Shown in pieces: positions 6,548 through 33,266 of a stretch of DNA of 64,000 bases (position 1 is its first letter; every line of letters begins with the position of its first letter). Origin of the DNA: an uncultured virus (IMG/VR IMGVR_UViG_3300030098_004604) (taxonomy: Duplodnaviria > Heunggongvirae > Uroviricota > Caudoviricetes). The notes under the pieces are model-generated. The model was not told the origin of the DNA. It was given only the letters and a program-made list of their open reading frames with translations, and did not search any database. The translations under genes were made by a program, and so were the position numbers. The DNA is taken from positions 1-64,000 of IMG/VR virus record IMGVR_UViG_3300030098_004604; one strand, 5' to 3'.

Positions 6548-6994
6548 ATGAGCTTTTTACTCTTCTGCATGGGCATTTTATACGCCAATGCCGTAGAATA
6601 TGTTGTCCATCGATACTTGTTCCACGGATTAGGCAGGAAAAAAGGCAGCATCTTTTCCTTCCACCTGCGTGAGCATCATACCACGGCCCGCCGTAATGGG
6701 TTCGAAGATCGGAAAGTGTCGGCAAATGAAGCGATTGGCTTGCCAGTGTTGATAGCCACCCATTTGCCGCTAAGTGTGATAGCGCCAACATTCTTTAGTG
6801 CATTGGTTGTGTATGCTGTAGCGTTTGGGGTACTCCACAACTACCAGCACAGACATCCAGAATTCACAAAGAAGTACTTCCCTTGGCATTGGGATCATCA
6901 CATGGGCAACCCAAATAAGAGTTGGGGGGTGGTATTGCCCATCATGGACTGGCTTACAGGAACTTTAGAAAAACCATTTGACTCGCAAGAGTGA
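6548..6994 (+). CDS. Fatty acid hydroxylase/sterol desaturase family membrane protein
   Basis: His boxes HRYLFH, HLREHH, HNYQH, HWDHH separated by hydrophobic segments. Confidence 0.8.
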   Translation: MSFLLFCMGILYANAVEYVVHRYLFHGLGRKKGSIFSFHLREHHTTARRNGFEDRKVSANEAIGLPVLIATHLPLSVIAPTFFSALVVYAVAFGVLHNYQHRHPEFTKKYFPWHWDHHMGNPNKSWGVVLPIMDWLTGTLEKPFDSQE

Positions 6995-7006
6995 TCGTGC
7001 TATATT
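6978..7006 (+). promoter_or_regulatory. Sigma70-type promoter for primase
   Basis: TTGACT-17 nt-TATATT with extended TG. Confidence 0.7.
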
Positions 7007-7023
7007 GTAGTACGAGGATAAAA

Positions 7024-7962
7024 ATGGATCGAACCGAAGCTAGAAGGATTTTAAATGAAGTTATTGGATACAGCAGAAACTCTGGATCGGAGCTTCTTTA
7101 CAAGTGTCCGTCGTGCAATCACCACAAAAATAAGCTCTCTGTTAATTTGGACAAAAATGCTTTTAAATGTTGGGTTTGTGATTATCGCGGTCGTAATATT
7201 AGGCGTCTTGTTAGACGTTTTGGTACGAATTCACAATTACAGAAATGGGACCAGATTACAAACCGGGTTGATCTTGAGAGATTCGCTGATCTTTTTATGG
7301 AACCGATCACTGAAGAAGACTATCCACGAGTCGAATTCCCGGGGCAATTCATAAGTCTCACAGCAAAGAATTTGCCGGCAACGGCCAAGTTTGCTTATCG
7401 CTATCTGCGAGAGCGCGGCTTGACTGATGTCGACATTCTACGCTGGAAGATAGGCTATTGTTTTGAGGGGGAGTATCGCAACCGTGTGGTTATCCCCTCT
7501 TTTGATGATGAAGGTGCCGTGAACTACTTCATTGCTCGCTCGTATAACGGAGACTCATATAAATATAAAAACCCGAGAGCGTCCAAGAATGTTGTATTCA
7601 ATGAGCTTTTCACAGATTGGAACGCCGATCTAGTTTTGGTGGAGGGGGTCTTTGATGCCATCGTGGCCGGCAATGCAGTCCCTATTTTGGGGTCCACCCT
7701 ACGAAGAGACTCAAGACTAGTGCGCAAAATTGTATATAATGACACGCCTGTATATCTTGCGCTTGATCCTGACGCAGCAGACAAGGAGCGCCGAATCATT
7801 AAGATGCTGCAGCAATATGATATCGAGCTTTACAAGATTGATGTGCGCGGCTACGAGGACGTTGGCTCCATGCCGAGAGGAGTGTTTGAAGAGAGAAAGA
7901 ATAACGCATCCTTTATCGATGCAGACAACTATTTACTGTTGAATTTGTTGTCAGCAATATGA
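7024..7962 (+). CDS. DNA primase (DnaG-type)
   Basis: Zn finger CPSC...CWVC; TOPRIM motifs EGVFDA and DPDA; start set at ATG 7024 (SD GAGGA, downstream of the promoter). Confidence 0.9.
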   Translation: MDRTEARRILNEVIGYSRNSGSELLYKCPSCNHHKNKLSVNLDKNAFKCWVCDYRGRNIRRLVRRFGTNSQLQKWDQITNRVDLERFADLFMEPITEEDYPRVEFPGQFISLTAKNLPATAKFAYRYLRERGLTDVDILRWKIGYCFEGEYRNRVVIPSFDDEGAVNYFIARSYNGDSYKYKNPRASKNVVFNELFTDWNADLVLVEGVFDAIVAGNAVPILGSTLRRDSRLVRKIVYNDTPVYLALDPDAADKERRIIKMLQQYDIELYKIDVRGYEDVGSMPRGVFEERKNNASFIDADNYLLLNLLSAI

Positions 7963-7968: not shown

Positions 7969-8919
7969 GTGATGAGATTAAGTGAGCAACGCCTTAAGGA
8001 GGTTATCTTTGAGGAGGCATACGGCCGCATTTTAGATGATTTGATAGTTGAGGAACTTTTCCGCGTTCTGCTTGAGCAAGATGATGAGATAGACGAAGAC
8101 GAATACTTAGAGCAATGGAAAACGAACAGCAGCTTTCGTCAAAAGGTTAAAGACTTTTTTGCCGGGTTTGATGCACTACCATCTATAAAGAAGAAAGCTG
8201 CTATTGTTGCTTTAGGTATATTAGGGGCCGCCGGGACTGATTTTGCAGGTGAGCATGCGTCCCAAGCACAAGCAAGAGAGATAGCCTCTGAGTTGCGCGC
8301 AGACGCTCAGGATGCCAGAGAAAAGTATTTTGGCACTGCAGCCGACTGGTCACACTTTAGAGACGCCGCCACAGCAGAGGGTGCTTCACCAATCGCCCCA
8401 GAGGACGACGAGGGAATTCAACAGGCCAAGGCCAAATTTATGCGAATGGGTGTGGACCAAGCACCAATCATTGGCGATGTGGGCTTGGGAATGAGTACAG
8501 GCGAACAACAGTTTTATTATACACCAGCGGACCAGATTCCTGATGATGAGCAGATGCCGTTTGTGGGCATGAGCAAGGCTGATTGGGAGTCTACCATTCG
8601 CCGGTGGCTTACTGAGCCCGATGGCCGCGATAGGCTTGAAAAATTTATAGGCACTCAGGGTCGCGGCCAGTCTATATTCTGGGCATATGGTCCCAGAGAA
8701 AAGTTGTTTTACCATGCTGCAGATGAAGCCCCCGAAGGACAGCGAGGCATGTGGCTTCCACCAGAATGGTCAGTAGCCTATGATGTAGTTCAGAAGAACA
8801 AAGCCAGAGCAGGGAATCAACCCTCTCCCGAGGATGAAATAGGGATCCCGCTGGGTACAGATAGCTGGCTGCAAGAAAATTTAAGAAAGTACTTGCATTC
8901 TCTGGCCACTGTGTTATAA
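7969..8919 (+). CDS. Hypothetical protein with a divergent MKIT-type leader and one hydrophobic segment
   Basis: N-terminus MRLSEQRLKEVIFEE resembles the leader family; AAIVALGILGAAG segment. Confidence 0.6.
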   Translation: MMRLSEQRLKEVIFEEAYGRILDDLIVEELFRVLLEQDDEIDEDEYLEQWKTNSSFRQKVKDFFAGFDALPSIKKKAAIVALGILGAAGTDFAGEHASQAQAREIASELRADAQDAREKYFGTAADWSHFRDAATAEGASPIAPEDDEGIQQAKAKFMRMGVDQAPIIGDVGLGMSTGEQQFYYTPADQIPDDEQMPFVGMSKADWESTIRRWLTEPDGRDRLEKFIGTQGRGQSIFWAYGPREKLFYHAADEAPEGQRGMWLPPEWSVAYDVVQKNKARAGNQPSPEDEIGIPLGTDSWLQENLRKYLHSLATVL

Positions 8920-9101: not shown

Positions 9102-12100
9102 GTGAAGTTTGCACATATAGCAGATACTCATATTAAAAATCTGAAGTATCACTATGAATATAACATTATTTTTGAGCAGTTGTATGAGACACTGCGAGAA
9201 CAAGAGGTGGACTATATTGTCCACTGCGGGGACATAGCCCACACAAAGACACAAATCTCACCGGAATTTGTTGAGATGTGTTCACAATTCTTTAAGAATT
9301 TGGCAGAGATTGCACCGACATATATTATTTTGGGTAATCACGATGGCAACTTGAAGAACAGTAGTCGTCAAGATGCTTTGACACCAATTGTCGAAGCGCT
9401 TGATTTGGACGATCTGCATCTTCTTAAGGAGTCAGGAGAAACACATATTGATGATGATTTCTGCCTGAATGTGCTTTCGGTATTTGATCGAGACAACTGG
9501 ATTAAGCCGACTAACACAGACAAGATTAATATCGCCCTGTATCACGGATCGATTAGTCGCTGCAAGACAGACACCAATTGGACAATGACACATGGCGAAG
9601 ATGAGCTTAGTATTTTTAATGACTTTGATTTCTCTATGTTGGGAGACATTCACCGCCGTCAATTCTTGGATGAGGATGGCCGCGTTTGGTACGCGGGTTC
9701 TACTGTTCAGCAGAATCATGGCGAGACTAACGACAAGGGTATTCTGATTTGGGATATTAAATCTAAGGACGATTGGGAGATCGAACCCGTTGTCTTGAAG
9801 AATCCGCGACCCTTCTTTACGATTCCGCTGACGCTAACGGGCCGCATGCCACGCAACATTGACGTGCCAGAGAACGCACGCTTGCGTCTTGTTAGCACAA
9901 ACAATCTTCCGCTTGATTCTATGCGGCGTGCTATGGATATTGCTAAGCACCGCTTTAAGCCTGAAAGTATCTCGTTTTTGAATAGAGCAGCAGGCGAGCG
10001 CGGCAATGTTGAAGATATTACCGACACACTGCAGACGGAAAACCTTCGAGATATCAATATTCAAGAAGAATTGATTGATGAATATCTGTCAGACTTTCAA
10101 GTGGATCCGGATACGCTAGAAACTGTGTATGAACTCAACCGTAAATACAATAAAATTGTTGAGGACAATGAAGAAATTTCTAGAAATGTTAACTGGAAAA
10201 TAAAGAATTTTAAGTGGGACAACTTATTTAACTATGGAGAGGATAACTCAATTGATTTTCACAGCATGTCAGGGATTGTTGGAATCTTTGGAAAGAACTT
10301 TTCTGGGAAGAGTTCTATTATCGATGCTGCGCTTTACACTCTCTTTAACACAACCTCCAAAAACGAACGAAAAAACCTTAACGTCATCAATCAAAATAAG
10401 GACTTCGGAAGAGGAGAGTTAGAGATCCAAGTTGGAACAAGGCGCTACACGATTACCAGAGCTTCTGAGAAATATATCAAGCGCCTCAAGGGAGAGGAAA
10501 CCCAAGAGGCTAAGACCGATCTGAACTTCGAAGTATATGATGAGGTCACCGGCGAGACAACTTCGCTCAACGGCACCACGCGCAATCAGACCGATGCAAA
10601 TATTCGCAAGCACTTCGGGACTATAGAAGATTTTTCTGTGTCCTCTCTGGCGTCGCAGCACGGAGCATTCTCATTTGTTGATGAGGGCTCGACTCGTCGC
10701 AAGGAGATTATCGCTAAGTTCTTGGACTTGGAGGTGTTTGATAAGAAGTTTAGATTAGCAAAGGAAGATTCTGTCGACACCAAGGTTCTACTAAGAAAGA
10801 ACGAGGACCGCGAGTTTGATGCAGAAATCGAAGAAGTGCTCGCCGATCTTACTGCGGCAAGAAAAAAGTCAGAACGAAACCAAGCTACCTGCGCTCAGTT
10901 GACCGAAGCGATTGATGCTAGGAATATTGAGCTTGACTCGTTGAGCATGCAGATAAACTCTATTCCTGCAGAGTTCATTGATATCTCTGTTGCAACACAG
11001 AGCCGGCATAACAAACAACGAGATTTGAAATTGTTGACCGAGGAGATTGCTCAGCAGGATATTGATATTGATAAGAAGCAGGCGAAGTATGACAAGTCGT
11101 ATGNNNNNNNNNNCGTATGAGTTTGTTGCCTCTATTAATATCGATGAACTGAGAGAGAAGCAGGTTGTTGCAGAAAGTGTGCAGGCCAAGATTGACAAGC
11201 TGCAAAAAGAGATGGCCGAGATTGACAAGAAGCAGGAGCTTTTGAACAGCATTCCTTGTGGCGACTCGTTCCCCACCTGTCGCTTTATAAAAGACGCACA
11301 CATTGCCGTAGCCACGCAAGAGGTCACAGAGCATGAATTGTCCTCTGCAGTCGCCGCGCTTTCGGAAATGGGTGCTGATGATGTCAAGAGAAAAATCTCC
11401 CAGTTCGAAACGATTGAGGCTTTAGCTGAGTCGTTAGAAAGGCAAATCTCTACTCTGCAACTTAAGCGAGAGAGAAACAAGAATGCCAAGACAAACATAG
11501 AGTTTCAGCTAAGAGAAGTTGAATCAAAAATCGAAGAGTACAACGATAACAGGGATGTTATCGAGAACCTAGAAAAACTATTAAACGAAAAGGAAGAACA
11601 TGAAAAGGAAATCGAACTTTCGCAAGCTAAGATCAAACGCTGCGAGAAGAAGACGCTTGACTTATACAAACAAATTGGCTCTGAGGAGCAAAAACTACAA
11701 TCCCTTCGGGATGAGCGAGCCTCCCACCTTAGATTGCGACGAGAGTTTGCAGCCTACGATCTCTTCATGCGATGTATGCACGCAAACGGAATTGCCTACG
11801 ACGTAATCAAAAAGAAGATTCCAGTTATCAATCAGGAGATTGCAAAGATTCTTGCGAACATTGTTGACTTTGAGATCTTCTTTGAGAGCAATGGAAATAA
11901 GTTTGATATTTTTATCAAGCATCCGCTGCATGATGAAAGACCAATTGAAATGGCTTCTGGTGCGGAAAAGACAATGGCTGCGATGGCTATTCGATTGGCG
12001 CTTCTTAGCGTTTCGTCGTTGCCAAAGGCAGACTTGTTTATTCTTGACGAACCCGGAACTGCATTAGACGAAGAAAATATGGAGGGGTTTATTAGGATAT

Positions 12101-13798: not shown

Positions 13799-14164
13799 AT
13801 GAAAATCACAAAATCACAACTTAAACAAATAATCAAGGAAGAACTTGAAGAAGGCTTTATGGATAAAGTAACTGGTATGCTAGGTTCCAAGAAAGAAGAA
13901 CTTCCTATGAGCGATAAGATTGCTGCTGTTCGTAGAATGTTTCTTGACGTTGGCGATGATCTCGACGAGAACGATAAACTCAATAATGCGATGGAAGCCT
14001 TGGACGCTCTCGAACTCAAGGATGAAGTTGGCGAAGACGATTCTATTGGAAAGAAACTTTGGGACGCATCTTCTAATCTTTATCAAGCCTTCAATGATTT
14101 GAATGCACTTTTGAGGGAAGCCGAGATTATGGCCTTGCGTTCCGAGTACAAGGAAGAAACATAA
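13799..14164 (+). CDS. MKIT-leader protein (putative internal head protein)
   Basis: MKITKSQLKQIIKEEL leader. Confidence 0.75.
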   Translation: MKITKSQLKQIIKEELEEGFMDKVTGMLGSKKEELPMSDKIAAVRRMFLDVGDDLDENDKLNNAMEALDALELKDEVGEDDSIGKKLWDASSNLYQAFNDLNALLREAEIMALRSEYKEET

Positions 14165-14523
14165 TGAAAATAACAAAATCACAACTTAAACAGATCATCA
14201 AGGAAGAGCTTGAAATTGTGTTAAGCGAGAATAGGCTAAACATGCAAGCGGTCGAAGATGCATTCACGATGGCGGTTGTTGAAAGACCTCCTAAACTGGG
14301 ATTACCAGTTGCGGTCACAATCGAAGTGGTAAACAAAAAGCTGGCTGAAACACTTGGATGGGTTCCCGATGAAAATCAGGTATCAATATTCTTAAGACAA
14401 ATATTGACGGATCAATCTGTACTAGAACGCCTTGGAATTGAAAAGGTGGATCTAGGATCAGAGATTACACAAACCACAGACGGCATGACTTATAGAAACA
14501 AAGAAGCCGCTGCGAGGGTATAA
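14164..14523 (+). CDS. MKIT-leader protein
   Basis: MKITKSQLKQIIKEEL leader; TAATG coupling. Confidence 0.75.
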   Translation: MKITKSQLKQIIKEELEIVLSENRLNMQAVEDAFTMAVVERPPKLGLPVAVTIEVVNKKLAETLGWVPDENQVSIFLRQILTDQSVLERLGIEKVDLGSEITQTTDGMTYRNKEAAARV

Positions 14524-14524
14524 A

Positions 14525-14902
14525 ATGAAAATCACAAAATCACAACTTAAACAGATTATTAAAGAAGAGCTATCAAACACTCTCAAGCTCAAAGAGAGCA
14601 TTTCTGTGGAAGCGTGGGATAATCTTCGATCCGTGCTGGAAAGCAATCAGGAAATCTTTCGCTTGGCATATCAAGACTTAATCAATTCTCATCGTCCCGA
14701 TCAAATCGACGCAGACACCGGAGAGCCTGTTGATTCCGACCCCCACACAGAAGCCATGAAACAGATTGTGAGCCTTATTGAACCTTATCTCACCGATGAA
14801 GAAGATCCTTGGGAGCGTGGAGCTTCTTGGGAAGATGACGAAAGCTGGCAAGAAGAAGAAAGAGACATTGAGGGCCGCTCCCCAAAAGGTACTGAACAAT
14901 GA
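14525..14902 (+). CDS. MKIT-leader protein
   Basis: MKITKSQLKQIIKEEL leader. Confidence 0.75.
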   Translation: MKITKSQLKQIIKEELSNTLKLKESISVEAWDNLRSVLESNQEIFRLAYQDLINSHRPDQIDADTGEPVDSDPHTEAMKQIVSLIEPYLTDEEDPWERGASWEDDESWQEEERDIEGRSPKGTEQ

Positions 14903-15219
14903 AAATTACAAAGAAACAGCTTAAACAGATCATTAAGGAAGAAATAGAGAGCACTTTAAAAGAGTACATCGGGCGACCTCTGCACAGGCCATACAGTGAC
15001 GCGGAGCAAAAAGAGCGCGACAAACAGGGCGCGCTTCGTCAAGCCGCAGTGGAGGAGCTTAATAACAACGAAGAAGCCGGCGCGCTTTGGGATAAGCTTC
15101 GAGACCACACGTATGGCTCCGAAGAAGAATACAACACGGATTTAAACGCATTTGCAGCGCTCTTCCCCAAGAACTTGCAAGCCATGGCGAAGAAACTTGT
15201 GGCCATGAACCAACATTAA
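14899..15219 (+). CDS. MKIT-leader protein
   Basis: MKITKKQLKQIIKEEI leader; ATGA overlap. Confidence 0.75.
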   Translation: MKITKKQLKQIIKEEIESTLKEYIGRPLHRPYSDAEQKERDKQGALRQAAVEELNNNEEAGALWDKLRDHTYGSEEEYNTDLNAFAALFPKNLQAMAKKLVAMNQH

Positions 15220-15230
15220 GGAACAGCACA

Positions 15231-15758
15231 ATGAAGATCACCAGAACACAACTTAAAGCTTTAATTCGCGAACAGGTCGCAGCAGTCATTAACGAAACAG
15301 ACTGGCGCGATGTTTCTGATCCGGACTATCACAAACCTCAAGGAGAAGCCGGCCCGTATGCTGACTTCAAGGAAGGTATGCCAGAAGTCGCCGGCCTCAT
15401 GTCTCAGGCAGGAGCATACGCGATGCCCCCCGCCGCCATGCAGAGGTTAATGCGAGTCATTAAAGAATTTGCGCCGCACCTTCCCGACGAAGAGTTGCTG
15501 AATTTTGCTCAACAGCTTATTGATGCTGGTGCCCTTGAAACTGCGCTATCGGCCCCCAAAGGCACATTGCAGGAGGACAAGGAGGGCAAAGGCAAGTGTC
15601 CTTCTGACGGCTGTGTTCAAGCTCGCGAAGGTCACTGGGTTGTAATCTCAAATAAGACTGGAGAGTGTTGGGGAAGAAGTAAGAAAGAAGGCGGCAAATG
15701 CACTCAGTATGATTCTCGTAAGGATGCCGAGGCAGCCTTGGATGCATATCACGCATAA
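15231..15758 (+). CDS. MKIT-leader protein with Cys-containing C-terminal domain
   Basis: MKITRTQLKALIREQV leader. Confidence 0.7.
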   Translation: MKITRTQLKALIREQVAAVINETDWRDVSDPDYHKPQGEAGPYADFKEGMPEVAGLMSQAGAYAMPPAAMQRLMRVIKEFAPHLPDEELLNFAQQLIDAGALETALSAPKGTLQEDKEGKGKCPSDGCVQAREGHWVVISNKTGECWGRSKKEGGKCTQYDSRKDAEAALDAYHA

Positions 15759-15769
15759 GGAACTAAACA

Positions 15770-16237
15770 ATGAACACAATATTTGAAAATTGGAGAATTG
15801 ACCTTCTATATGAAGAGTGGCTAAAGAATAGGTCGCTCAATGAGGGGCAGTCTAGGTTTACATTGGCACAGGCGGCCACCATTCTTGGTCTCCACCCCAA
15901 ACAAGCCAAAAAGAAGCCGCTCAATAAAGTCATGGCCATCAAAGCTAAAGAGAAATATCGGCAGTTGGCCTTGAAGTATCATCCGGATCGGAACCCGGAC
16001 AATCCCGAAGCGGAAGCCAAGTTTAAAGAGGTGTCCGAAGCATACGCCGTTCTTACGGACGATGATATCACCCCGGCCCCCGCGAAGGCGTCCGACTCCA
16101 GCGGCCAAGCACAAGGCTCAACCACCCCTGAGCCAAACAACGACAAGAGTGAATTGTACAACACGATTATACAAGCGATGGGTAAGGCGTTTGCCCGACC
16201 ACAAGCTGCGGTTGCAGAAGGAAAACAAAAGAAATGA
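15770..16237 (+). CDS. J-domain (DnaJ-like) co-chaperone protein
   Basis: [33 protein letters not shown]: canonical J-domain with HPD. Confidence 0.9.
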
Positions 16238-16530
16238 ATTTATTGAGCAGAATTACAGGGTGGTTCTCTAAACCTACTCCCGTCACAGTTGTTGAAGAAG
16301 CGGAAGAGGTTGTTGTAGCTGATGAAGCTGGCGAGTCCGCTGGTGAAATCTTCACTAGACTTTGCCGCACCGCCGGCGTTAAGAACAGAGAGCTAATCAA
16401 GGTAAGCGCCGCCGAAGTTTTTGAGGCGTGGTATGTTGGACCGGTGTCGGATGCAGCTATCTTAGAGGCAATTTCGACATTCAAGAACGAACACCCCGGC
16501 ATCAGCGCAAAACTATCAGGGAAGATTTAA
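16234..16530 (+). CDS. Hypothetical protein
   Basis: ATGA-coupled ORF in a tight operon. Confidence 0.6.
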
Positions 16531-16531
16531 A

Positions 16532-17368
16532 ATGAATATTACTAAAGCTAGATTAATTGAAATCATCAAAGAAGAGGTGATTAAAGAGGCAGGCGGAGTC
16601 GCCGGCAACTTTGGCGGTGTTGCTACAGAGTTGGGCGCCCAGCGCGCCGACGGCAACGATTTGCCAGACCACGACCTCTACGGCCCACAGCAGACAGCCG
16701 AAGACAATTTTGTTGGCATCTTAAATGAAATTGGTCACATGCTCGATGCATGGGAGAAGAAGAAGTATCCCTCTGACGAGGCCCGATACATGAGCTATTT
16801 TGAAGATCTTCAAGGGCTGCTTGAGCAGTACGATCCTTGCGCCCATGTTGGGCAGAAGTGCGAGGACGTTCATCCAAACCAAAGCCACGAAGAGTGTGTG
16901 GAGGTTACGATTAACAATGCGCTTTACGAGGCGGCTCAAAAAAGACTTAACGAAATGTACCCGCGCAGACGCGGACACTCAGCGCGATCTAATGTCGCGG
17001 GACCGGTCAACCCCAAGCGAAAATTAAAATACGGAGAGAAATGTCCGGCCGGCTACAAGTTAGGGCTTACGGATTATTGTGAGAAAATCGGCGCCCGCCC
17101 GAAGGACATCGAGAACGCAATTAACGACATTGAAAACCCTAACCGGTCCGGCGGCTATGGTGGACTTGAAGAGGAAAACAGCTGACCAGACAAAGAGGGC
17201 TCAGGTGAGCTTGGAGAAGTTTTAGGACCAGATGCGGAAGTTGGCGAATATATTGAAGATTTTCAAGATTCCGATGCTCCCCAGTTTAAGGGAAAGAGCA
17301 AGAAGAAAAAAGCCCAAATGGCCTACGCGGCCCACGCAGCAGCCAAAGAAAAAAGAGGTAAAAAATGA
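16532..17368 (+). CDS. MKIT-leader protein with in-frame UGA at 17183-17185 (217 aa, or 278 aa on readthrough)
   Basis: Frame stays open 60 codons past the UGA, encodes EYIEDFQDSDAPQFKGKSKKKKAQMAYAA and ends in an ATGA overlap with the next gene. Confidence 0.65.
17197..17212 (+). promoter_or_regulatory. SECIS-like hairpin GGGCUC-AGGU-GAGCUU
   Basis: Starts 11 nt after the in-frame UGA; loop G,U at +23/+24 counting U of UGA as +1. Confidence 0.45.
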
Positions 17369-17565
17369 TGGAAAAATCAAAAGCATTTGTTGATACATGG
17401 TTATCAAAACTGACATCGCGCAAGCTATTAGTGTGGGGTACAGCAACCGCACTTACGTTTGCAGGACACGTTACCAGCGAAGATTGGGTAATCATTTCCG
17501 CAATCTATATCGGAGGTCAAACTGTGATCGATGGTATTGCAAGGCTGCGGGGGCATAATGACTAA
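17365..17565 (+). CDS. Putative holin-like small membrane protein
   Basis: 66 aa, two hydrophobic segments, SRKLL motif. Confidence 0.5.
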   Translation: MMEKSKAFVDTWLSKLTSRKLLVWGTATALTFAGHVTSEDWVIISAIYIGGQTVIDGIARLRGHND

Positions 17566-17941
17566 TGAGGTCATTGTCAAGTTTGTTTTAAACAATTGGA
17601 AGCAGATTCTTTTCGGAGTACTTCTGCTGGCGCTGATGGCGAAGTTTCGCTACGATTACCACCAACTAGAGAAGGCATACGAAACAAGCCAGCAATCCTT
17701 AGAAGAGCAGATTGCAGGACTGAAGGATATTCATAAGCGCGAACTAGAGCGACGCGATGAGGCCATTGAGAAATATCGAGATGCCTTAGAACAACTGGAA
17801 GAGAGCTACTTAGACTCCCAAGTGGAACTTGAGCGAGAGCGTAACAAGTACAAGAAAGATCGTGTCAAAGATTTCAAAACCGACCCAGACGCACTGAGTA
17901 AAGATATTGAGGAGGCATTCGGCTTTATAAATGCTCGCTAG
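17558..17941 (+). CDS. N-terminally anchored coiled-coil protein (i-spanin-like)
   Basis: N-terminal TM (ILFGVLLLALMA) followed by a long coiled coil. Confidence 0.45.
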   Translation: MTNEVIVKFVLNNWKQILFGVLLLALMAKFRYDYHQLEKAYETSQQSLEEQIAGLKDIHKRELERRDEAIEKYRDALEQLEESYLDSQVELERERNKYKKDRVKDFKTDPDALSKDIEEAFGFINAR

Positions 17942-18353
17942 TTTACTATTGCTGTTCACAATGACCGCGCATGCCGAGGAGCCGGGGAAGTTTGTAATAC
18001 TTCGTCAGAATGAGTGCGCGCCTTTCGAAGGCGTATTGTTCGATCCCGTAGCCACAGCAGAGGTTCTCAATGTAAAAGTTTATGCTAAGCGCGAGTGTGA
18101 AATGACATTGGCGCATGAATTAGAAAAGAAAGAAATAGAATTCCAATTAGAAAGAGACAAATACAATATTCGATATGATGCACTTGTAGAAGAACACAAA
18201 CTTCTGGTTGAACAAAAAGATATAGAAATCACAAAACTTCGAGAATCGCTCTTGAAGCAGTCACCACGAAACAATTGGCTGTGGGCTGCCGGCGGAGTGG
18301 TTGTCGGCATGGCCGCCACATACGGCGCTTATAAGGTGTTTAATGACAACTAA
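17931..18353 (+). CDS. Exported coiled-coil protein with C-terminal TM helix (spanin-like partner)
   Basis: Signal peptide ending AHA, coiled coil, C-terminal WLWAAGGVVVGMAATYGAY. Confidence 0.45.
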   Translation: MLASLLLLFTMTAHAEEPGKFVILRQNECAPFEGVLFDPVATAEVLNVKVYAKRECEMTLAHELEKKEIEFQLERDKYNIRYDALVEEHKLLVEQKDIEITKLRESLLKQSPRNNWLWAAGGVVVGMAATYGAYKVFNDN

Positions 18354-18720
18354 AAATCCAGACCGCATCGCTGCAATAGAAAAAGCCATATCTAAGAAAT
18401 ATGGTGACGATGCAATTAAAAACCCTCGTGCTGAATGGGGGGAAGAAAAAGAAAAAGAGTACCTTGAGCAAATGAAAGAGTTCTACGCAAAGGTTAAACG
18501 CAATGAAGAGGCGCAGGAAAAAGTTGACATTAATGGTATAAAGGTTTCAAAAAAACTACTTAATAGAGAATCTTTAAAATGTTGTCCTGTCTGCGGATCT
18601 TTTCCAAGGAAATCAATGGATGATGTATGTCTTGCCAAGTTTGATTGTTGCAATAAATGCTACATTCAATATGTGGAAGGCAGAGAAGAAAGATGGCTAA
18701 AAGGATGGAGACCTGAATAA
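18343..18720 (+). CDS. Hypothetical protein with Zn-finger-like CPVC...CNKC
   Basis: Overlap-coupled ORF with Cys pairs. Confidence 0.6.
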   Translation: MTTKNPDRIAAIEKAISKKYGDDAIKNPRAEWGEEKEKEYLEQMKEFYAKVKRNEEAQEKVDINGIKVSKKLLNRESLKCCPVCGSFPRKSMDDVCLAKFDCCNKCYIQYVEGREERWLKGWRPE

Positions 18721-19283
18721 TGGCAACAGTTTATGAAATAGTACAAGGTTTGGCGCAAGCAGCCGCTAACGCATATGATGGCGCGCTTGGCGAAGATTAT
18801 GAGCCCGACAAGCCCGGCATTCTACGCAGAGAAGAGGGTAACGCCCTCATCGATCAGCGTGTGATGGACGGCTTTAACGTCCGGTTTTATGGCAACAAGA
18901 TGTGCTTGTCCTATCACTCGGAGATTAAGTTGAAGGAAGTTTATGCCTCCGGCTTTGAGACCGAGATGGAGCAGCGAATCGCTGACATCGCAGGCTGGCT
19001 CAAGAAAGAATACAAAAAGATTACAGGCAACTCGGTTAGCCTTACGGAATTGGGCGAAATCGACGTTCGCGTTGAGAACTCTTCTCGCGTTAGAACTTGG
19101 GTCACAGCCAAGATGAATTATACCGTTGGTGGGCTTGATGAGGATTTGGCAATTGAAAAGCCTTCGAAGGATCGCCTCGACAAGAATTGGAAAAGTTTCC
19201 TTGATCAGGGCGGCTGGAATGGTGAAGGTGGCAAGCGCCCCGACAACGATTCCCGCAAGAAAGACAAGGGACCACAATCATGA
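18720..19283 (+). CDS. Hypothetical protein
   Basis: TAATG-coupled 187-aa ORF. Confidence 0.6.
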   Translation: MATVYEIVQGLAQAAANAYDGALGEDYEPDKPGILRREEGNALIDQRVMDGFNVRFYGNKMCLSYHSEIKLKEVYASGFETEMEQRIADIAGWLKKEYKKITGNSVSLTELGEIDVRVENSSRVRTWVTAKMNYTVGGLDEDLAIEKPSKDRLDKNWKSFLDQGGWNGEGGKRPDNDSRKKDKGPQS

Positions 19284-19738
19284 AACGCAAAAATACAAGA
19301 CGCTTTGATCCTCGTTACTTTATGGACGAGAAGACCGAGAAGCCAAAAGTAATCAAAGAAGCAGCAGAAGAGACTGACTGGACTAGAGTGACAGGACTCG
19401 GCGACGACCCATCCTCCCACCCAGATAAACAAGAGATTGTGCAGAAATGCTGGCACAAAACTAAGCATCTGAAGAAGGGTGAGTTTGTTACAGCATTCAA
19501 TGCGTGCATGGAAGAAGCCCTGCTATCCATGGCAGAGGGTCTTGGTGACGTCGGAATGTACGACTTCAGTAGCGGCAAAGCTAAGCGTGTTACACCCACG
19601 TATATAGCCCGATCAACTGATAAACACGATTGGGTTCAAGAAGCAGCAAACGCATTATCAGAGGAACCGCCGAATGTCGAAGAGGCACTTGAAGCCCTCA
19701 ACAACGAACTCGAACTGCGCAGCCGCTCGCCCAAATAA
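19280..19738 (+). CDS. Hypothetical protein, RKNTRRxDPRYF-leader family
   Basis: MKRKNTRRFDPRYFMDEK shared with 13386. Confidence 0.7.
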   Translation: MKRKNTRRFDPRYFMDEKTEKPKVIKEAAEETDWTRVTGLGDDPSSHPDKQEIVQKCWHKTKHLKKGEFVTAFNACMEEALLSMAEGLGDVGMYDFSSGKAKRVTPTYIARSTDKHDWVQEAANALSEEPPNVEEALEALNNELELRSRSPK

Positions 19739-19751
19739 CTAACAAAAATGA

Positions 19752-21335
19752 ATGACTTTTCAATTAGACAAGAAACAAAGAGTAAAGGAAATATTAAAGT
19801 GCGGTAAGGATCCTGCTTACTTCTTGAAGACGTATGCCCGTATATCACACCCGATGCACGGGCTTATTCTTTTTAATACTTATGACTTTCAAGATGATCT
19901 CCTCACAGACTTTAATGACTATCGCTTTAATGTAATCCTCAAAGCGCGCCAGCTTGGTATCTCTACAATTACCGCTGGCTACATCGTATGGATGATGCTC
20001 TTCCATCGCGATAAAGCTGTACTTGTTATGGCCACCAAGTTTGCCACAGCAGGAAACTTAGTTAACAAGGTCAAGAAGATTATGAAGAATCTCCCTGATT
20101 GGATTCGTATTGCCGATATTGATATTGATAATAGAACGTCGTTTATCTTGTCTAATGGTTCTTCGATTAAGGCCGCCTCCACTTCTGGTGATGCCGGTCG
20201 TTCGGAAGCTTTGTCGCTTTTGGTTCTTGATGAGGCAGCCCACATTGAAGGTTTGGAAGAGTTGTGGACAGGTTTGTATCCAACACTTTCGACAGGTGGT
20301 CGCTGCATTGCGCTTTCGACCCCAAACGGCGTTGGTAACTGGTTCCACAAGACGTGCATGGATGCAGACGCAGGTGCCAACAATTTCAATTTGACAACAT
20401 TGATGTGGGATGTACACCCAGAACGGGATGAAGAGTGGTTTAAGAAAGAAACCAAGAACATGTCTAAGCGCCAGATTGCGCAGGAGCTAGAATGCAACTT
20501 CAACACATCCGGCGACACAGTTATAGATCCAGAAGATATGCAGTGGCTGCTAGCCAACGTAAAAGAGCCAAAGTACAGAACGGGGTTTGATAGAAACTTT
20601 TGGATTTGGGAGGAGTTCGATCCTTCATGCAATTATTTAATGGTTGCCGATGTCGCCCGGGGCGATGGTGAGGATTTTTCAACCTTCCATATTATCAAAT
20701 TAGAGACCTTGGAGGTTGTCGGAGAATACCAAGGGAAGCTAACACCAGATATGTTTGCTGCTATGTTAAACCAAACAGCACGAGAGTTTGGCAACTGCAT
20801 GCTGGTGGTAGAAAATAATAATATTGGCTACACAGTTTTGGATAAGCTGATAGAATATGAGTATCCCAACATATATTTTTCCATAAAGTCAACTCATGAA
20901 TATATTGAACAATATCAAGCGGAGCATCGCACGTCGGCGGTGCCGGGGTTTTCGACAAGCGTGAAGACCCGTCCGCTCATCATTGCGAAATTAGAAGAGT
21001 TTATAAGAAACAAACTAATTAAACTATATTCTGCTCGTACTATCAACGAAATGAAGACTTTTATATGGAGGAACGGCAAGCCTCAAGCTATGAAGGGGTA
21101 TCACGACGATCTTATTATGGCCTTGGCCATTGCGTGCTGGGTTAGAGACACGGCCCTGCAGGCAAATGCCCGAGACCTTAATTATCAAAAAGCATTTTCA
21201 GATGCCATCATAACTTCTAGAACAAGCATGAACACACAAATTAAAGGACAACACGGCTACAAGAAAGATAACATCTTAGATCAGATAAACGAGGCTCGTC
21301 AAACATACGACGAATTTAAATGGATTATAAAGTGA
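19752..21335 (+). CDS. terL: Terminase large subunit (T4 gp17-like)
   Basis: LKARQLGIST Walker A, LLVLDEAAH Walker B, STPNG, nuclease ADVARG and DDLIMA. Confidence 0.95.
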   Translation: MTFQLDKKQRVKEILKCGKDPAYFLKTYARISHPMHGLILFNTYDFQDDLLTDFNDYRFNVILKARQLGISTITAGYIVWMMLFHRDKAVLVMATKFATAGNLVNKVKKIMKNLPDWIRIADIDIDNRTSFILSNGSSIKAASTSGDAGRSEALSLLVLDEAAHIEGLEELWTGLYPTLSTGGRCIALSTPNGVGNWFHKTCMDADAGANNFNLTTLMWDVHPERDEEWFKKETKNMSKRQIAQELECNFNTSGDTVIDPEDMQWLLANVKEPKYRTGFDRNFWIWEEFDPSCNYLMVADVARGDGEDFSTFHIIKLETLEVVGEYQGKLTPDMFAAMLNQTAREFGNCMLVVENNNIGYTVLDKLIEYEYPNIYFSIKSTHEYIEQYQAEHRTSAVPGFSTSVKTRPLIIAKLEEFIRNKLIKLYSARTINEMKTFIWRNGKPQAMKGYHDDLIMALAIACWVRDTALQANARDLNYQKAFSDAIITSRTSMNTQIKGQHGYKKDNILDQINEARQTYDEFKWIIK

Positions 21336-21343: not shown

Positions 21344-23365
21344 ATGGCACCACCCAATAGAAATGGAAGAAACCCAGCGAACGCACAATCAGAGCTTTTT
21401 AAGGCTCTAACAAGGTTGTTCTCTGGTCCGATTATTAATTATCGTTCGCAGTCTGGACGCCGTATTAGGCGCCAGCACCTTGATAAGTTTGGCTCGCGGT
21501 TTAAGTCAGCTTCGGGACAACAGTTTAAGAAGTCCCTGTACAACCCTTTAGATGTTGTAGCTACAGATGCCATTGCCAACCAGCGTAGAACTGAGCGCTA
21601 CGTGGATTTTGATCAGATGGAGTACATGCCTGAGATTGCCTCGACATTGGATATCTATTCTGATGAGATGACAACGTACTCGCAGTTGCGCCCAATGCTT
21701 AATATTGACTGCACAAACGAAGAGATTAAGGCCGTCCTCACAATCCTCTTTGACCAAGTTTTAAACCTTCAGTACAACTTATTCGGCTGGAGTCGAACCA
21801 TGTGCAAGTATGGCGACTTCTTCTTGTATCTGGACATTGATGACAAGTACGGTGTGAAGTCTGTTATTGCCCTTCCTCCACAAGAGATTGAGAGAATGGA
21901 AGGTAAGGATGCAACCAACCCCAATTACGTACAGTTCCAATGGAACTCAGCTGGCATGACCTTCGAGAACTGGCAGGTTTGCCACTTCCGTATTTTAGGA
22001 AACGACAAGTACCTTCCCTACGGCTCTTCTATTCTTGAGCCTGCACGACGCATTTGGCGCCAGCTTACACTGATGGAAGATGCCATGATGGCTTATCGTG
22101 TTGTTCGTTCGTCTGAACGCCGCGTCTTCAAGATTGATGTTGGTGCAATTCCACCGCAAGACGTCGAACAGTACATGCAAAAGATTGTGACACAACTTAA
22201 GCGACACTCTGTTGTTGATCCAACTACCGGCCGCATTGACCTTCGCTATAATCCAATGAGCATCGAAGAAGACTATTTCATCCCTGTCCGCGCCGGTTCT
22301 GCCACAGAGATTCAATCTCTCGCCGGCGCACAGAACATTACAGCGATTGACGACATTAAATATCTGCGCGATAAGCTGTTCTCTGCTCTTAAAATTCCTG
22401 CCGCATATCTTTCGATGGGTGAAGAAGCCGCAGAAGATAAGACAACCCTCGCACAGAAAGACATTCGTTTCGCGAGAACGGTACAAAGACTTCAGAGAGT
22501 TATCATCGCAGAACTTACAAAGATTGGTATTATCCACCTTTATACGCTTGGATTCCGTGGTGATGACTTGTTAAGCTTTAACCTTTCCCTTAATAACCCT
22601 TCTAAGATTGCCGAGCTTCAAGAGCTTGAGCACTGGAAGCAGAAGTTTGACATTGCCGCTTCTGCTACCGAGGGCTACTTCTCTCGCCGCTGGGTTATGG
22701 AGCATGTATTCGGAATGTCGAACGAAGACTTCCAGCGCAACCAGCGTGAGATGTATTATGATCGCAAGCACGATGCAGCATTGCAGGCCGTTGCCGAAGC
22801 TGCAGCCGCAGCAGGCGCTGGCATGGCCGGCGGTGGCATGGGCGGAGACTTAGGAGGCGATCTTGGAGGCGGCATGGGCGGTGATCTTGGAGGTCCCGCA
22901 GAGATGCCCGCTGGAGACACTGGTCCTGAGCCCGTCGGTGATGCTGGAGCAGAACCCGCTGGTGACGCCGGTGGTGGTGATGACTCGGCCCTTCTGGCAG
23001 TTCCCCCCGGAAGTCGTGATGTACGCAAGTATGAGAAGTCACAATACAAGGCGAAGAACGGCACCAACGACTATCGTCAAGGCCGAGGTCCTCGCAAACG
23101 CTCAAACGATGCGTCCGCCGGGAACCAGAAAGCCAGTGGTGGTACTCGCAATGTATTTCCCGGCGCCCGTGACATAACCAACCTAGCAAAGCCAATTGGC
23201 GTCAATGTGGGTATTTACGAACAGGAAGACCCTACTTATAAGTTGAGGGAAAGCTCAGAGGAAGATAAACTATTTGAAGTAAACGAATCAATCAGAACGT
23301 TACTTCAGGGCCTCGAAACCAAAGAAAGCATTTTAATGGAGCAAAAAGATGAAAACAAGGCATAA
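21344..23365 (+). CDS. Portal protein (T4 gp20-like) with Gly/Asp-rich C-terminal extension
   Basis: LMEDAMMAYRVVRSSERRVFKIDVG, EDYFIP, DDIKYLRDKLFSALKIP motifs; follows TerL. Confidence 0.93.
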   Translation: MAPPNRNGRNPANAQSELFKALTRLFSGPIINYRSQSGRRIRRQHLDKFGSRFKSASGQQFKKSLYNPLDVVATDAIANQRRTERYVDFDQMEYMPEIASTLDIYSDEMTTYSQLRPMLNIDCTNEEIKAVLTILFDQVLNLQYNLFGWSRTMCKYGDFFLYLDIDDKYGVKSVIALPPQEIERMEGKDATNPNYVQFQWNSAGMTFENWQVCHFRILGNDKYLPYGSSILEPARRIWRQLTLMEDAMMAYRVVRSSERRVFKIDVGAIPPQDVEQYMQKIVTQLKRHSVVDPTTGRIDLRYNPMSIEEDYFIPVRAGSATEIQSLAGAQNITAIDDIKYLRDKLFSALKIPAAYLSMGEEAAEDKTTLAQKDIRFARTVQRLQRVIIAELTKIGIIHLYTLGFRGDDLLSFNLSLNNPSKIAELQELEHWKQKFDIAASATEGYFSRRWVMEHVFGMSNEDFQRNQREMYYDRKHDAALQAVAEAAAAAGAGMAGGGMGGDLGGDLGGGMGGDLGGPAEMPAGDTGPEPVGDAGAEPAGDAGGGDDSALLAVPPGSRDVRKYEKSQYKAKNGTNDYRQGRGPRKRSNDASAGNQKASGGTRNVFPGARDITNLAKPIGVNVGIYEQEDPTYKLRESSEEDKLFEVNESIRTLLQGLETKESILMEQKDENKA

Positions 23366-24179
23366 TAAAAAGAGAAACACCGCGTTTGTTTACGAGGCTC
23401 TTGTCAGAGAAGTTACGGTTGCCGTCTTAAAAGAGAACTCTGACCGTCGAGATAAGGTTGTTACGATTATCAAAAAGCATTTTGCAGATGGTTCGCCACT
23501 TAGACAGCAGTTGGAGTGCTATCGTTCTTTGTATGAAGTGCGCGGCGTTTCCGAGAATACTGCCAAAAGAATCCTCAACGAGGCTAAGATGGCCAGCCGG
23601 CTACTTGACGCACACGGCCTTTTTATCAGCCAAAGCGACCTGATAGATGACGTCAATAAGGAAGTGGACCCGCAAGTTTTCAACAACTTTGTCCCGAACT
23701 ACAAGACACTGGCGACCATCTCTCAGATGTTTTCCCCTAAGACATCCCCAAGAGACAGGGTTATCTTGGAGAATCAGATTATCAAAGCTATGACATCTCC
23801 CCCTCCTCCGAAGGTTAATGTTGCGGGCATCGATAATGTCACATATAAGACATTTGTCGGCAAGTTTAACAACAAGTATGGCGACGAGTTATTGCAAGAG
23901 CAGAAAGAACTGCTGACTCGTTATATTTCGTCATTCAGCGATAACGCCTTGGAGCTTAAGATGTATCTTAACACTGAGATTGCACGCTTAAAAGAGAAGA
24001 TGGTTGAAGCAAAAGCCATTGAAGATATTAAAAATGATGAAGATATGCTTAAGAAGGCTGAAGCTGTTGTTGAGCGCCTTGCGTCATATGCCAAGAGCGA
24101 GATTACAGAGGAGGTTCTTATGACCGTCCTTAAGACCCAATCATTAGTTGAGGAAATTTACAATGGCAATAACGATTAG
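23349..24179 (+). CDS. Head-module hypothetical protein
   Basis: 276-aa helical ORF overlapping the portal gene end. Confidence 0.65.
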   Translation: MKTRHNKKRNTAFVYEALVREVTVAVLKENSDRRDKVVTIIKKHFADGSPLRQQLECYRSLYEVRGVSENTAKRILNEAKMASRLLDAHGLFISQSDLIDDVNKEVDPQVFNNFVPNYKTLATISQMFSPKTSPRDRVILENQIIKAMTSPPPPKVNVAGIDNVTYKTFVGKFNNKYGDELLQEQKELLTRYISSFSDNALELKMYLNTEIARLKEKMVEAKAIEDIKNDEDMLKKAEAVVERLASYAKSEITEEVLMTVLKTQSLVEEIYNGNND

Positions 24180-24705
24180 AGTTGGAGACAAGGCTAACAG
24201 AAAGTTAGTCACCCTTGAGATGGACATCCGCAAGAGCTTAAGCGGAGACTTGATGATTTTTGATCATGGTGATATTGACATTGTGCTTTCTGCTCAGCAG
24301 AACAAAGTTATTGCATTCCCCAAAGAGGTCATCTCAGATTATGTGTATGGAGCCCAGAACAGGCTCTTTACTTTTTTACGCAAGAGAGGGATCGTCGTGG
24401 CTGAATCTATTCAGGCAGGCGCCTTCTATGGTTCATTCGAAGCAACCATGCAACAGCCGAACATCGAAGGAATGAGTGCGGCCAAGATGGCACTTGTCAA
24501 TATTTCGAACTTTATTACAGAAGAGCGCCCCTACTTTGAGTCCACCGAGGCGATTGTGTCAATGGCTGATGATGAGTATATTGAGCCGGATAATGAGGAC
24601 TCCACCGAGTTGGGTGAGGTGCCGCAGGCCGTGAAGCAGGGCTCCATCCGCAAGGGTTTCGTGAGAGATCCTTACGCTATGAATTACCTTTATACATTAG
24701 AATAG
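24163..24705 (+). CDS. Hypothetical protein
   Basis: SD GAGGA before ATG 24163. Confidence 0.6.
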   Translation: MAITIRVGDKANRKLVTLEMDIRKSLSGDLMIFDHGDIDIVLSAQQNKVIAFPKEVISDYVYGAQNRLFTFLRKRGIVVAESIQAGAFYGSFEATMQQPNIEGMSAAKMALVNISNFITEERPYFESTEAIVSMADDEYIEPDNEDSTELGEVPQAVKQGSIRKGFVRDPYAMNYLYTLE

Positions 24706-24712
24706 GAAGCAA

Positions 24713-25048
24713 ATGGAACTTATAACCTTTACGCTCATAGCGTACGGACTAACGCAAATTTTAGTCTATAGTGATATGCCGCTCATAAAACGCTTACGCC
24801 CATCCAAAGAGGCAGGTCGCGGCTATGGGAAGGTGTTCCACTGCCCAATGTGCATGGGTTTTCATGTTGGTTGGTTTTTAATGCTTCTTTCTCCGTTTAC
24901 AGAACTATTTAATTTTGACATTACTGTAACTAATTTCTTTCTTCTTGGGTGGCTCTCGTCTGGGACATCGTATGTTTTGAACATGGTCTTCGGAGATAAG
25001 GGAATACAGTATTCACAAACTATGGAGATGACCGGTCATGAAGATTGA
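24713..25048 (+). CDS. Small membrane protein with CPMC motif (DUF1360-like)
   Basis: Hydrophobic segments with central CPMCMGFHVG. Confidence 0.55.
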   Translation: MELITFTLIAYGLTQILVYSDMPLIKRLRPSKEAGRGYGKVFHCPMCMGFHVGWFLMLLSPFTELFNFDITVTNFFLLGWLSSGTSYVLNMVFGDKGIQYSQTMEMTGHED

Positions 25049-25358
25049 CAAAAAGAGACTTAGACAGATTATAAAAGAAGAAATTCAGAAGTTTGAAGAG
25101 CGCGTCGGTGGCGGTGACCGCTATTCCACCCAAGATGCCAATACTGCTCTGCAGCAACAGCGCGGCAGCCAAGGCGTTGGTGCCGCCGGCATTAATGATG
25201 CAGAGCGTGGAGTTATGATGGGACTTATGAATGCCCTTAAGGCCGCTGCCGCAAAAGGTAACATCACTAGTGGCGCCGCAGCGGCACAGATTGAAAGGCT
25301 AATGGGTATGCTAGAGAAAGTGGCGGGCGCCCCCGCAGAACAGGAGCAAGGACAATGA
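25038..25358 (+). CDS. MKIT-leader protein
   Basis: MKIDKKRLRQIIKEEI leader. Confidence 0.7.
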   Translation: MKIDKKRLRQIIKEEIQKFEERVGGGDRYSTQDANTALQQQRGSQGVGAAGINDAERGVMMGLMNALKAAAAKGNITSGAAAAQIERLMGMLEKVAGAPAEQEQGQ

Positions 25359-25444
25359 ACACCACATGGATTAAGAAGTGGATGCTTCAACCTGTCAGAC
25401 TTTGTAAGTCTGGCTGTATAATCGCGCGGGTAACGCCCGCATAA
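25355..25444 (+). CDS. 29-aa peptide MNTTWIKKWMLQPVRLCKSGCIIARVTPA
   Basis: ATGA overlap with the upstream stop; fills the gap before 25463. Confidence 0.4.
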   Translation: MNTTWIKKWMLQPVRLCKSGCIIARVTPA

Positions 25445-25462
25445 GAACAAGGAACAAAAGAG

Positions 25463-25789
25463 ATGAAGATTAACAAATCACTATTGCAAAAGATCATACA
25501 AGAAGAGCTTGAGGCAGTCCTTGATGAATTTCTGGGACTTCCCAAGTTGAAGGGTCTCACTAAGCGTGTGCAGGGCACCACCCTCGCAAACAAAACTGCA
25601 GAAGAAGAATGCGAAGCATCGCGTGATTTTGCCATGCGCAAAAAGAAAGTTACTTACCCCGAGACCGGCACTGTTGAAGAGTTTGCTAATCAGCGCGCCG
25701 CTAAGGAGTGGCTGAAAAAATGCAAACCAGACGCCCACCGAAAAATGACACGCTCTCGGACCCATGACCCCGCCGATACGGATGAATAA
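25463..25789 (+). CDS. MKIT-leader protein
   Basis: MKINKSLLQKIIQEEL leader. Confidence 0.7.
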   Translation: MKINKSLLQKIIQEELEAVLDEFLGLPKLKGLTKRVQGTTLANKTAEEECEASRDFAMRKKKVTYPETGTVEEFANQRAAKEWLKKCKPDAHRKMTRSRTHDPADTDE

Positions 25790-25805
25790 AACAGAGGATT
25801 AACAA

Positions 25806-26411
25806 ATGAGCAAGAAAGTACTAAGAGAATATTACGCACTGTGTGAGGGAGGAGTTTGCCAAGACCTTCTTACCGAACAAGAGAAGCAGTTCATCGCCGA
25901 CGGAGGAATGATTCTGTCTGGTATTATGCAGAAGTCCGACACCGTTAACGGCAATGGCCGCGTGTATCCTCACAACGTTTTAATGAAAGAGATGAAGAAC
26001 TACCAAAAGCTTGTCAAAGAATGCCGAGCACTTGGAGAACTAGACCATCCAGAAGATTCTGTCATTAATCTTAAGAACGCATCCCACATGATTACAGAAG
26101 TGTGGTGGGACGGCAATGCAGTGATGGGAAAAGCTAAAGTGCTTGATACCCCATCTGGTAAAATTCTACGCTCTCTGGTGGACTCTGGCGTTACGCTAGG
26201 TATATCTTCGAGAGGTATGGGGTCTGTTACTGAGTCTAATGGGCAGACAACCGTAGAAGATGACTTCCAACTGATTTGTTTTGACTTTGTTTCGGAGCCA
26301 TCTACTCCGGGCGCCTTCATGATGAAAGAGGCCAAGGACCACACTAACCAAGTGTTCACCAAAGCTGATCGCATCAATCGCCTCTTAAACGAGGTGCTTG
26401 AGGATGAGTAA
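25806..26411 (+). CDS. Prohead maturation protease (T4 gp21-like)
   Basis: NGNGRVYP, ALGELDHP, GISSRGMGS, DFVSEPSTPGA. Confidence 0.95.
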   Translation: MSKKVLREYYALCEGGVCQDLLTEQEKQFIADGGMILSGIMQKSDTVNGNGRVYPHNVLMKEMKNYQKLVKECRALGELDHPEDSVINLKNASHMITEVWWDGNAVMGKAKVLDTPSGKILRSLVDSGVTLGISSRGMGSVTESNGQTTVEDDFQLICFDFVSEPSTPGAFMMKEAKDHTNQVFTKADRINRLLNEVLEDE

Positions 26412-29221: not shown

Positions 29222-29258
29222 CTATTTATATTTGTAAACAAATTTTGGAGGTTTTATA

Positions 29259-29675: not shown

Positions 29676-29679
29676 TTAG

Positions 29680-30366: not shown

Positions 30367-30388
30367 TTAACTCTAGGAGGCACATCAT

Positions 30389-33177: not shown

Positions 33178-33216
33178 TCTAAAGCATTTGCTTGGGATAA
33201 GATATTCTTAATCTCT

Positions 33217-33249: not shown

Positions 33250-33266
33250 AGAGACTATTTATTAGT

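Follow-up and report, generated by a model that had tools for sequence, protein, structure and literature searches.

A portable linker with a conserved in-frame UGA-C in marine myophage accessory genes is a candidate for stop-codon readthrough

Programmed stop-codon readthrough is textbook knowledge for the RNA phage Qbeta and for eukaryotic viruses. Other phages produce long and short isoforms by programmed frameshifting, as in 10A/10B of T7 and G/GT of lambda, and some recode TAG or TGA as sense genome-wide in their late genes. In bacterial selenoprotein genes an in-frame UGA is paired with a small stem-loop directly downstream; the SECIS of Escherichia coli fdhF starts 11 nt past the UGA, has G23/U24 in its loop and contains a bulged U.

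The locus described here lies in a window of 64,000 nucleotides (positions 1 to 64,000 of the IMG/VR virus record IMGVR_UViG_3300030098_004604), where an ORF ending in UGA is followed by an open stretch of the same frame. Read through, it would resemble T7 10A/10B and lambda G/GT in yielding a minor, C-terminally extended form from one gene. Those extensions depend on a frameshift at a slippery site, whereas the present one follows a stop codon without change of frame, and no slippery site was seen. With genome-wide phage recoding the locus would share a stop read as sense near lysis or late genes, but here the event would concern a single site, TGA being the terminator of 28 of 85 ORFs in the record, and the fragments contain no recognised suppressor tRNA. 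Like fdhF and other bacterial selenoprotein genes, the locus has an in-frame UGA with a small stem-loop immediately downstream; unlike them, it has no Cys homologue, no redox context, no Rfam match and no bulged U, and the arrangement also occurs ahead of very short tails. With the coat/A1 readthrough protein of the single-stranded RNA phage Qbeta, the subject of a paper cited in PMC7026636, the locus would share a phage gene that closes in a leaky UGA, where near-cognate tRNA-Trp would give a minor C-terminally extended isoform beside a major short one; that tRNA-Trp misreads UGA is stated in PMC5289835. The present candidate differs in that it concerns a double-stranded DNA myophage and an accessory gene other than the coat, with the stop in a conserved linker that moves between different upstream and downstream modules. 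Alphavirus opal readthrough, as outlined in PMC13105319 and PMC7615711, combines UGA-C with a nearby 3′ structure and gives a fixed ratio of two products. That system, however, operates in eukaryotic translation at one fixed genomic site, whereas the present element is portable and would act in a bacterium.

The gene and its in-frame UGA

A marine myophage is the source of the record, a 73-kb fragment that CheckV puts at about 40% completeness, and all genes point in the + direction. Among their products are terminase, portal, prohead protease, major head protein, sheath, tube and baseplate proteins, and its recognised head genes occupy 21344-37786. The closest cultured TerL matches are from a Flavobacterium phage (48% identity) and a Microcystis phage (45%). 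The ORF of interest (16532..17185, + strand) starts with the ATG at 16532 and encodes 217 aa before its TGA. The product carries the motif MNITKARLIEIIKEE at its N-terminus, a core of ~135 aa that is conserved and rich in Cys and His, and a middle module that ends in GGYGGLEEENS. It belongs to a family of 104 proteins in which this core is conserved and the C-termini are mosaic.

The gene is the last in a run of small paralogues starting MKITKSQLKQIIKEE, and is followed in order by a 66-aa small hydrophobic protein (17365..17565, + strand), an ORF with PHROG matches to Rz-like spanins, and terminase. From its position only, the 66-aa product is presumed to be holin-like, and the genes downstream form a putative lysis cassette. 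The sequence-only reading had proposed a probable head protein. This assignment finds no backing, as the ORF, its tail and the read-through product have zero Pfam or PHROG matches and the gene sits beside small paralogues, the putative lysis cassette and terminase. A tblastn search against cultured phage records likewise returned zero matches, and the protein atlas gave no usable match and no feature match.

The surrounding genes show some further features. Eight ORFs (13799, 14164, 14525, 14899, 15231, 16532, 25038 and 25463) share the ~15-aa N-terminal motif MKITKSQLKQIIKEE or close variants of it; six are consecutive up to the gene described here and two fall between the genes for portal and prohead protease. 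The same type of motif also starts many unrelated proteins of related contigs, and one may speculate that it is a shared targeting or propeptide signal. Amid the small paralogues lies a DnaJ (J-domain) protein (15770-16237; Pfam PF00226, E=7e-16), and in relatives a DnaJ gene is kept just upstream of the family gene. Further upstream, a DnaG-type primase ORF (6991-7962) ends in TGA-G, and an unassigned 316-aa ORF (7969-8919) continues in the same frame two codons on, possibly starting MRLSEQRLKE, which resembles the N-terminal motif. This arrangement could be due to chance, since one adjacent pair in three falls in a shared frame. A 672-aa ORF (9102-11120) matches SbcD-like (residues 1-491) and SbcC-like (328-664) PHROGs and may be a fused nuclease.

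The TGA at 17183..17185 (+ strand) is followed by C, and this UGA-C is the candidate recoding site. Beyond it the same frame is open for 60 codons (17186..17365, + strand; PDKEGSGELGEVLGPDAEVGEYIEDFQDSDAPQFKGKSKKKKAQMAYAAHAAAKEKRGKK), starting PDKEGSGELG and finishing KEKRGKK. The extension closes at a second TGA (17366-17368) that forms an ATGA overlap with the start codon of the next gene (17365); with the GAGG ribosome-binding site this end region spans 17355..17368 on the + strand. Most family members close with the same ...KRGKK/ATGATGG junction, in an ATGA overlap with a small hydrophobic gene, so the endpoint at 17368 represents the usual architecture of the family. The earliest in-frame ATG, GTG or TTG past the TGA is tail codon 45 (Met). 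The coordinates, the 60-codon open frame, the missing early start and the ATGA overlap are letter for letter as first reported. The gap behind the ORF had also been called atypical, which is true locally, as it measures 179 nt and the other gaps among ORFs 13799-19752 are at most 13 nt, but not of the record as a whole, where more than ten gaps elsewhere exceed 100 nt. Barring one extension that enters the next gene and one behind a spurious ORF, the 60 codons are the longest extension behind the 28 TGA-terminated ORFs. The +1 frame of the window around the TGA closes after 13 codons. A +1/-1 frameshift or a hop at the TGA was considered and rejected, as the tails are in the zero frame.

The stop codon itself is unchanged across independent runs and assemblies. 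It is present without difference in contigs from four runs and four studies, with stretches uncovered by some runs left out of the evidence and low-depth variants of one contig set (X3) within the tail, at 17329, 17336 and 17341, excluded from the count, and the exact 217-aa product is found on four contigs, all members of its cluster ending ...EEENS. A 502-nt contig from a metatranscriptomic library covers ORF, TGA and tail without differences, but shows co-occurrence only, because such libraries may contain DNA. TGA-C and the linker that follows it occur together in 17 of 17 linker-bearing contigs (the window, L085-L087, L089, L090, L092-L094, L098, L153-L156 and L158-L160), eight of these loci having been added by a linker pattern search of viral contigs. 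When the pattern was searched without requiring a stop, six linkers were found and TGA precedes all six. In L090 the TGA occupies the same aligned codon despite an upstream module of only 67% identity. Neither an error of sequencing or assembly nor a recent nonsense mutation private to this genome is therefore a credible explanation: independent runs and assemblies carry the TGA, and it is conserved in diverged contexts. The possibility of a recent nonsense mutation, raised when the locus was first noted, can be set aside on these grounds.

No protein in a collection of 5.8 billion spans the junction by a sense codon, and only P0055, P0110 and P0111 span it at all. These three were rejected as sense (W) versions, as in each the W is a called TGA and not TGG; P0110 is L093 with both TGAs translated as W. 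All three are public predictions from short contigs in which both TGAs are taken as Trp, with fusions that enter the frame of the next gene, and they were probably called with code 4.

A different way of decoding the UGA would be an opal suppressor tRNA of phage or host, or a change of termination late in infection, either of which would make decoding efficient, as a restricted version of the recoding known from some phages. Such a tRNA could lie elsewhere, given that the record is only ~40% complete, and relatives do have tRNA genes. However, the record itself (G000) has zero tRNAs and the relative G001 has only tRNA-Asn, tRNA-Thr and tRNA-Ala. There is a single in-frame TGA site, and TGA is the ordinary stop of 28 of the 85 ORFs, some also followed by C and many in ATGA overlaps. 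The ordinary use of TGA and the lack of a tRNA on the record argue against a changed code or a suppressor, though all records are fragments, and we consider this explanation very unlikely.

The linker, its tails and the coding signal

The TGA and the 32 nt that follow it form an island of 35 nt (17183..17217, + strand; TGA CCN GAY AAA GAR RRC TCA GGT GAG CTT G), encoding the stop and then PDKE[GSDN]SGEL, which is kept while both flanks vary. Upstream modules are of at least six kinds, with ends ..EEENS, ..EEKES, ..ARE[ED]T, ..[NR]EEET, ..LQEET and ..EEDG, and variant contigs join at 17183 and at 17217-17219. Behind the linker stand four unrelated long tails, all in frame: DAPQ (DAPQFKGKSKKK; 60-61 codons), NNPWAIC (47 codons), DDRVSKK (DDRVSKKISHLK; 59 codons) and ENCFSEKY (ENCFSEKYTTFKGKSKC; 57 codons), the last with its own TAA 10 nt ahead of the next ATG. 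Four further contigs have short tails of 15-17 codons that end exactly in the ATGA. In 16 of 17 contigs the frame past the TGA thus reaches the next gene or ends no more than 10 nt short of it; the sole exception is L089, with a stop 13 codons past the TGA. Variants within the sample also keep the frame, with deletions of 132 and 147 nt and a replacement of 137 nt by 98 nt. In L090 the post-stop linker is identical at 24 of 33 nt.

The DAPQ tail recurs behind TGA with 98-99% nucleotide identity to the window in L086, L092, L093 and L094, found by a metagenome scan, and the upstream modules of these contigs are unrelated to that of the window. The first 200 nt of the small hydrophobic gene, in contrast, are only 79-83% identical between the window and L092-L094. 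Independent samples display the same pattern, with a near-invariant tail cassette (17186-17365) and a hydrophobic gene (17365-17600) that differs by ~10-20%. A near-invariant cassette beside a diverged gene suggests recent transfer of the cassette among genomes that had already diverged. A search of 596 Gb of bacterial genomes for the linker pattern gave five matches, all in unrelated contexts and without the 3′ arm, where the chance estimate is ~4. In L094 (~1690-1705), an in-frame AAA insertion creates a stretch of nine consecutive A immediately ahead of the ribosome-binding site that serves the next gene, and this stretch is prone to slippage.

The DAPQ tail is built around a module (DAPQFKGKSKKK; 17207..17350, + strand) predicted by AlphaFold2 to form a helix-loop-helix (pLDDT 88). 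Tblastn found 192 relatives of it in viral contigs, where it is N-terminal, central or C-terminal in ordinary ORFs of 65 to >1,100 codons (loci including L004-L083), with partner domains that include DUF5824, a cytidylyltransferase-like domain, Zeta-toxin/AAA_33 and DUF5710. A profile built from 34 copies matches 3,451 representative proteins at E<=1e-3, of which 2,254 also reach E<=1e-10. No Pfam family matches the module, and Foldseek of the model against the PDB returned nothing at E<=0.001. Among 66 distinct copies APQFKGKSK is invariant, although all synonymous codons are used, both serine codon families included, so selection acts on the peptide. The DF..SDAPQFKGKSK motif singled out in the sequence-only reading is therefore real and widespread, but its attribution to head proteins of T4-like phages has no support. 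In P0058-P0061, similar tails with the KRGKK end are fused to the body through sense codons, which makes the long form a normal architecture.

Whether the tail is under selection as protein when it lies behind the TGA can be read from its variation. The TGA-linked copies of this tail contain 13 variable sites, a small sample, distributed 10:3:0 over codon positions 3:1:2 (binomial p=0.0016). All ten third-position changes are synonymous, and the sole indel among these tails is 3 nt long and in frame. As the closest sense-linked DAPQ tails are only ~70-81% identical, this variation arose within the TGA-linked lineage. The codon-position bias is the sole direct evidence for selection past the stop. 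In the NNPWAIC tail of L098, lineage-specific changes are two synonymous and two non-synonymous, an uninformative split. The overlapping +1-frame ORF at 17232-17393 was rejected as an alternative, since the third-position bias in frame 0 argues against it.

The tail could in principle be expressed as a small gene of its own, with initiation at a non-canonical codon or re-initiation once ribosomes have terminated at the UGA. The module does occur elsewhere as short stand-alone proteins and at N-termini starting MPLGK, and the linker contains an AAGAGG-like stretch. Against this, none of the four long tails has an in-frame ATG, GTG or TTG at or near its start, and the GTG behind the AAGAGG stretch belongs to another frame, where its ORF has only six codons. 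We regard a separate gene as highly improbable.

The most substantial competitor is a plain stop, with the 217-aa protein as sole product and the tail as untranslated remnant of a former C-terminal module. The tail would then serve as a spacer and might also provide the holin-like gene with its translation-initiation region, and the linker would be kept by a role at the RNA level or in recombination, or by recent common descent. This reading draws on the normal use of TGA as a stop in the phage, on the near-identity of the DAPQ cassette between contigs, which implies recent spread, and on the deletion or replacement of tails in L089, L090 and L153-L155. Homology-driven exchange at Leu-Glu-Glu junctions would, moreover, preserve the frame without selection. 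Yet it leaves unexplained the 10:3:0 codon-position bias past the stop, the four different long tails that stay open and intact in compact genomes, the three independent deletions, all in frame, and the post-stop linker of L090, which is conserved about as well as the coding flank. A plain stop is the less probable reading, yet a serious one.

The hairpin and the selenocysteine question

The linker contains a hairpin, GGGCUC-AGGU-GAGCUU (17197..17212, + strand), whose stem of 6 bp follows the UGA after a spacer of 11 nt (17186-17196). The arms are GGGCTC (17197-17202) and GAGCTT (17207-17212), the loop AGGT (17203-17206), so that hairpin, spacing and AGGU loop lie where the sequence-only reading had placed them. 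A hairpin is present in every linker variant with the spacing fixed at 11 nt, and the loop is AGGU in four of five hairpin variants. The stem register is shifted in L153 and L155, and L090 carries one double change from G-C to A-U.

The structure is weak. In isolation the hairpin folds at -6.1 kcal/mol, and it is missing from the minimum-energy fold of its 76-nt context, which is no more stable than shuffled sequences (z=+0.88). Across 11 distinct hairpin sequences 92% of cells are paired with one compensatory pair, a level reached by 44 of 500 shuffles. An Rfam scan of 16000-18500 gave no family that matches the linker region at E<=10; two matches, to a snoRNA and to a Neisseria frameshift element, were discarded as chance level, both with E>2. 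An intrinsic terminator was rejected too, as a U-run is absent after the stem in most variants.

With its 11-nt spacing and a GGU in the loop, the hairpin would resemble the fdhF SECIS with its G23/U24. Accordingly, the locus had been proposed as a site of selenocysteine insertion, in which the hairpin would act as a bacterial SECIS, host SelB would deliver Sec-tRNA and the level of the long form would follow selenium supply. The fixed spacing in all variants and the recurrent AGGU loop are in line with this, and an in-frame UGA with an immediate downstream stem-loop matches the bacterial arrangement as described in PMC7026636. Several observations point the other way. Cys is found at the site in no homologue, linkers and protein searches included, and the check for a Cys aligned to the UGA instead turned up Trp (TGG), in L001 and L088. 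The codon is embedded in an acidic linker (EEET|PDKE) devoid of nearby Cys, not in a redox motif, and no Rfam family matches the region. The hairpin lacks the bulged U of the fdhF SECIS, and in L153 and L155 the stem is formed in a shifted register. The same linker ahead of remnants of 15-17 codons would give pointless selenopeptides. A search for the Sec genes found tRNA-Sec and selB absent from the phage fragments G000, G001 and G002, which are 17-40% complete. Selenocysteine is thus unlikely here, and the proposal is not upheld.

The corresponding claim for the element as a whole, that the 35 nt are a portable SelB/SECIS-type cassette moved between modular accessory proteins, is at least as unlikely. 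If it were true, the share of the long isoform, and perhaps the flow of ribosomes into the lysis gene, would track host selenium or SelB status, and phages would for the first time be seen to employ the machinery for selenocysteine.

Readthrough as the leading explanation

Sequence comparison shows conservation of the stop and its linker, an intact frame beyond them, and tails that vary in the manner of coding sequence. With a TGA that is real, old and conserved and an extension that is in frame, coding-like and without a start, some recoding of the UGA is the best reading. In bacteria UGA-C is an inefficient terminator, and tRNA-Trp misreads UGA, according to PMC5289835. The one relative with the upstream module of the window has TGG (Trp) at the aligned codon (GCTGGCCA versus GCTGACCA; L001/L088/P0003). 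The weak UGA-C, misreading by tRNA-Trp and the aligned TGG make near-cognate readthrough with Trp the simplest mechanism. Leaky readthrough at UGA-C, originally listed as an alternative only, becomes the leading explanation.

We therefore favour a model in which a portable 35-nt linker of UGA-C, 11-nt spacer and small hairpin, set between interchangeable modules in a group of marine myophages, would yield a short major and a long minor isoform. Most ribosomes would terminate at UGA 17183 and release the 217-aa short form. A minority would insert an amino acid there, most likely Trp by way of near-cognate tRNA-Trp, add the 60 codons with their basic helix-loop-helix module (DAPQFKGKSKKK) and terminate in the ATGA overlap with the holin-like gene. 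The long form would be recognised by a junction peptide of the predicted pattern ..EEET-X-PDKE[GS]SGELGEVLGPDAEVGEYIEDFQDSDAPQFK. The resulting ratio of long to short isoform would be low and fixed, either isoform may be functional, and a possible side effect is some translational coupling into the lysis gene. We judge the evidence from sequence to leave this model about evenly poised between right and wrong. More tentatively, and with doubt on our part, the hairpin may stimulate the event, making the linker a portable near-cognate readthrough cassette in bacteria. This would be new; we know of no bacterial stimulator of near-cognate readthrough of such a kind.

Several points weigh against readthrough. 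The DAPQ cassette is 98-99% identical between contigs, which leaves little time for decay, and the periodicity test comprises 13 sites only. In-frame joins could be automatic if recombination uses the coding microhomology CTTGARGAG (Leu-Glu-Glu). As L089 stops early and four contigs have lost the long tail, the phage can evidently dispense with the extension. The weak hairpin shows covariation no better than in shuffled controls.

Full-text literature searches, judged largely from abstracts, found neither programmed readthrough in a tailed DNA phage nor a phage selenoprotein, and in the same material no linker that contains a stop and is exchanged as a unit among protein modules. The novelty of the locus lies in a stop within such a portable linker. 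If the readthrough reading is true, gene callers systematically truncate such proteins or misread them with code 4, as with P0055, P0110 and P0111, and phages would own a simple portable device that sets isoform ratios.
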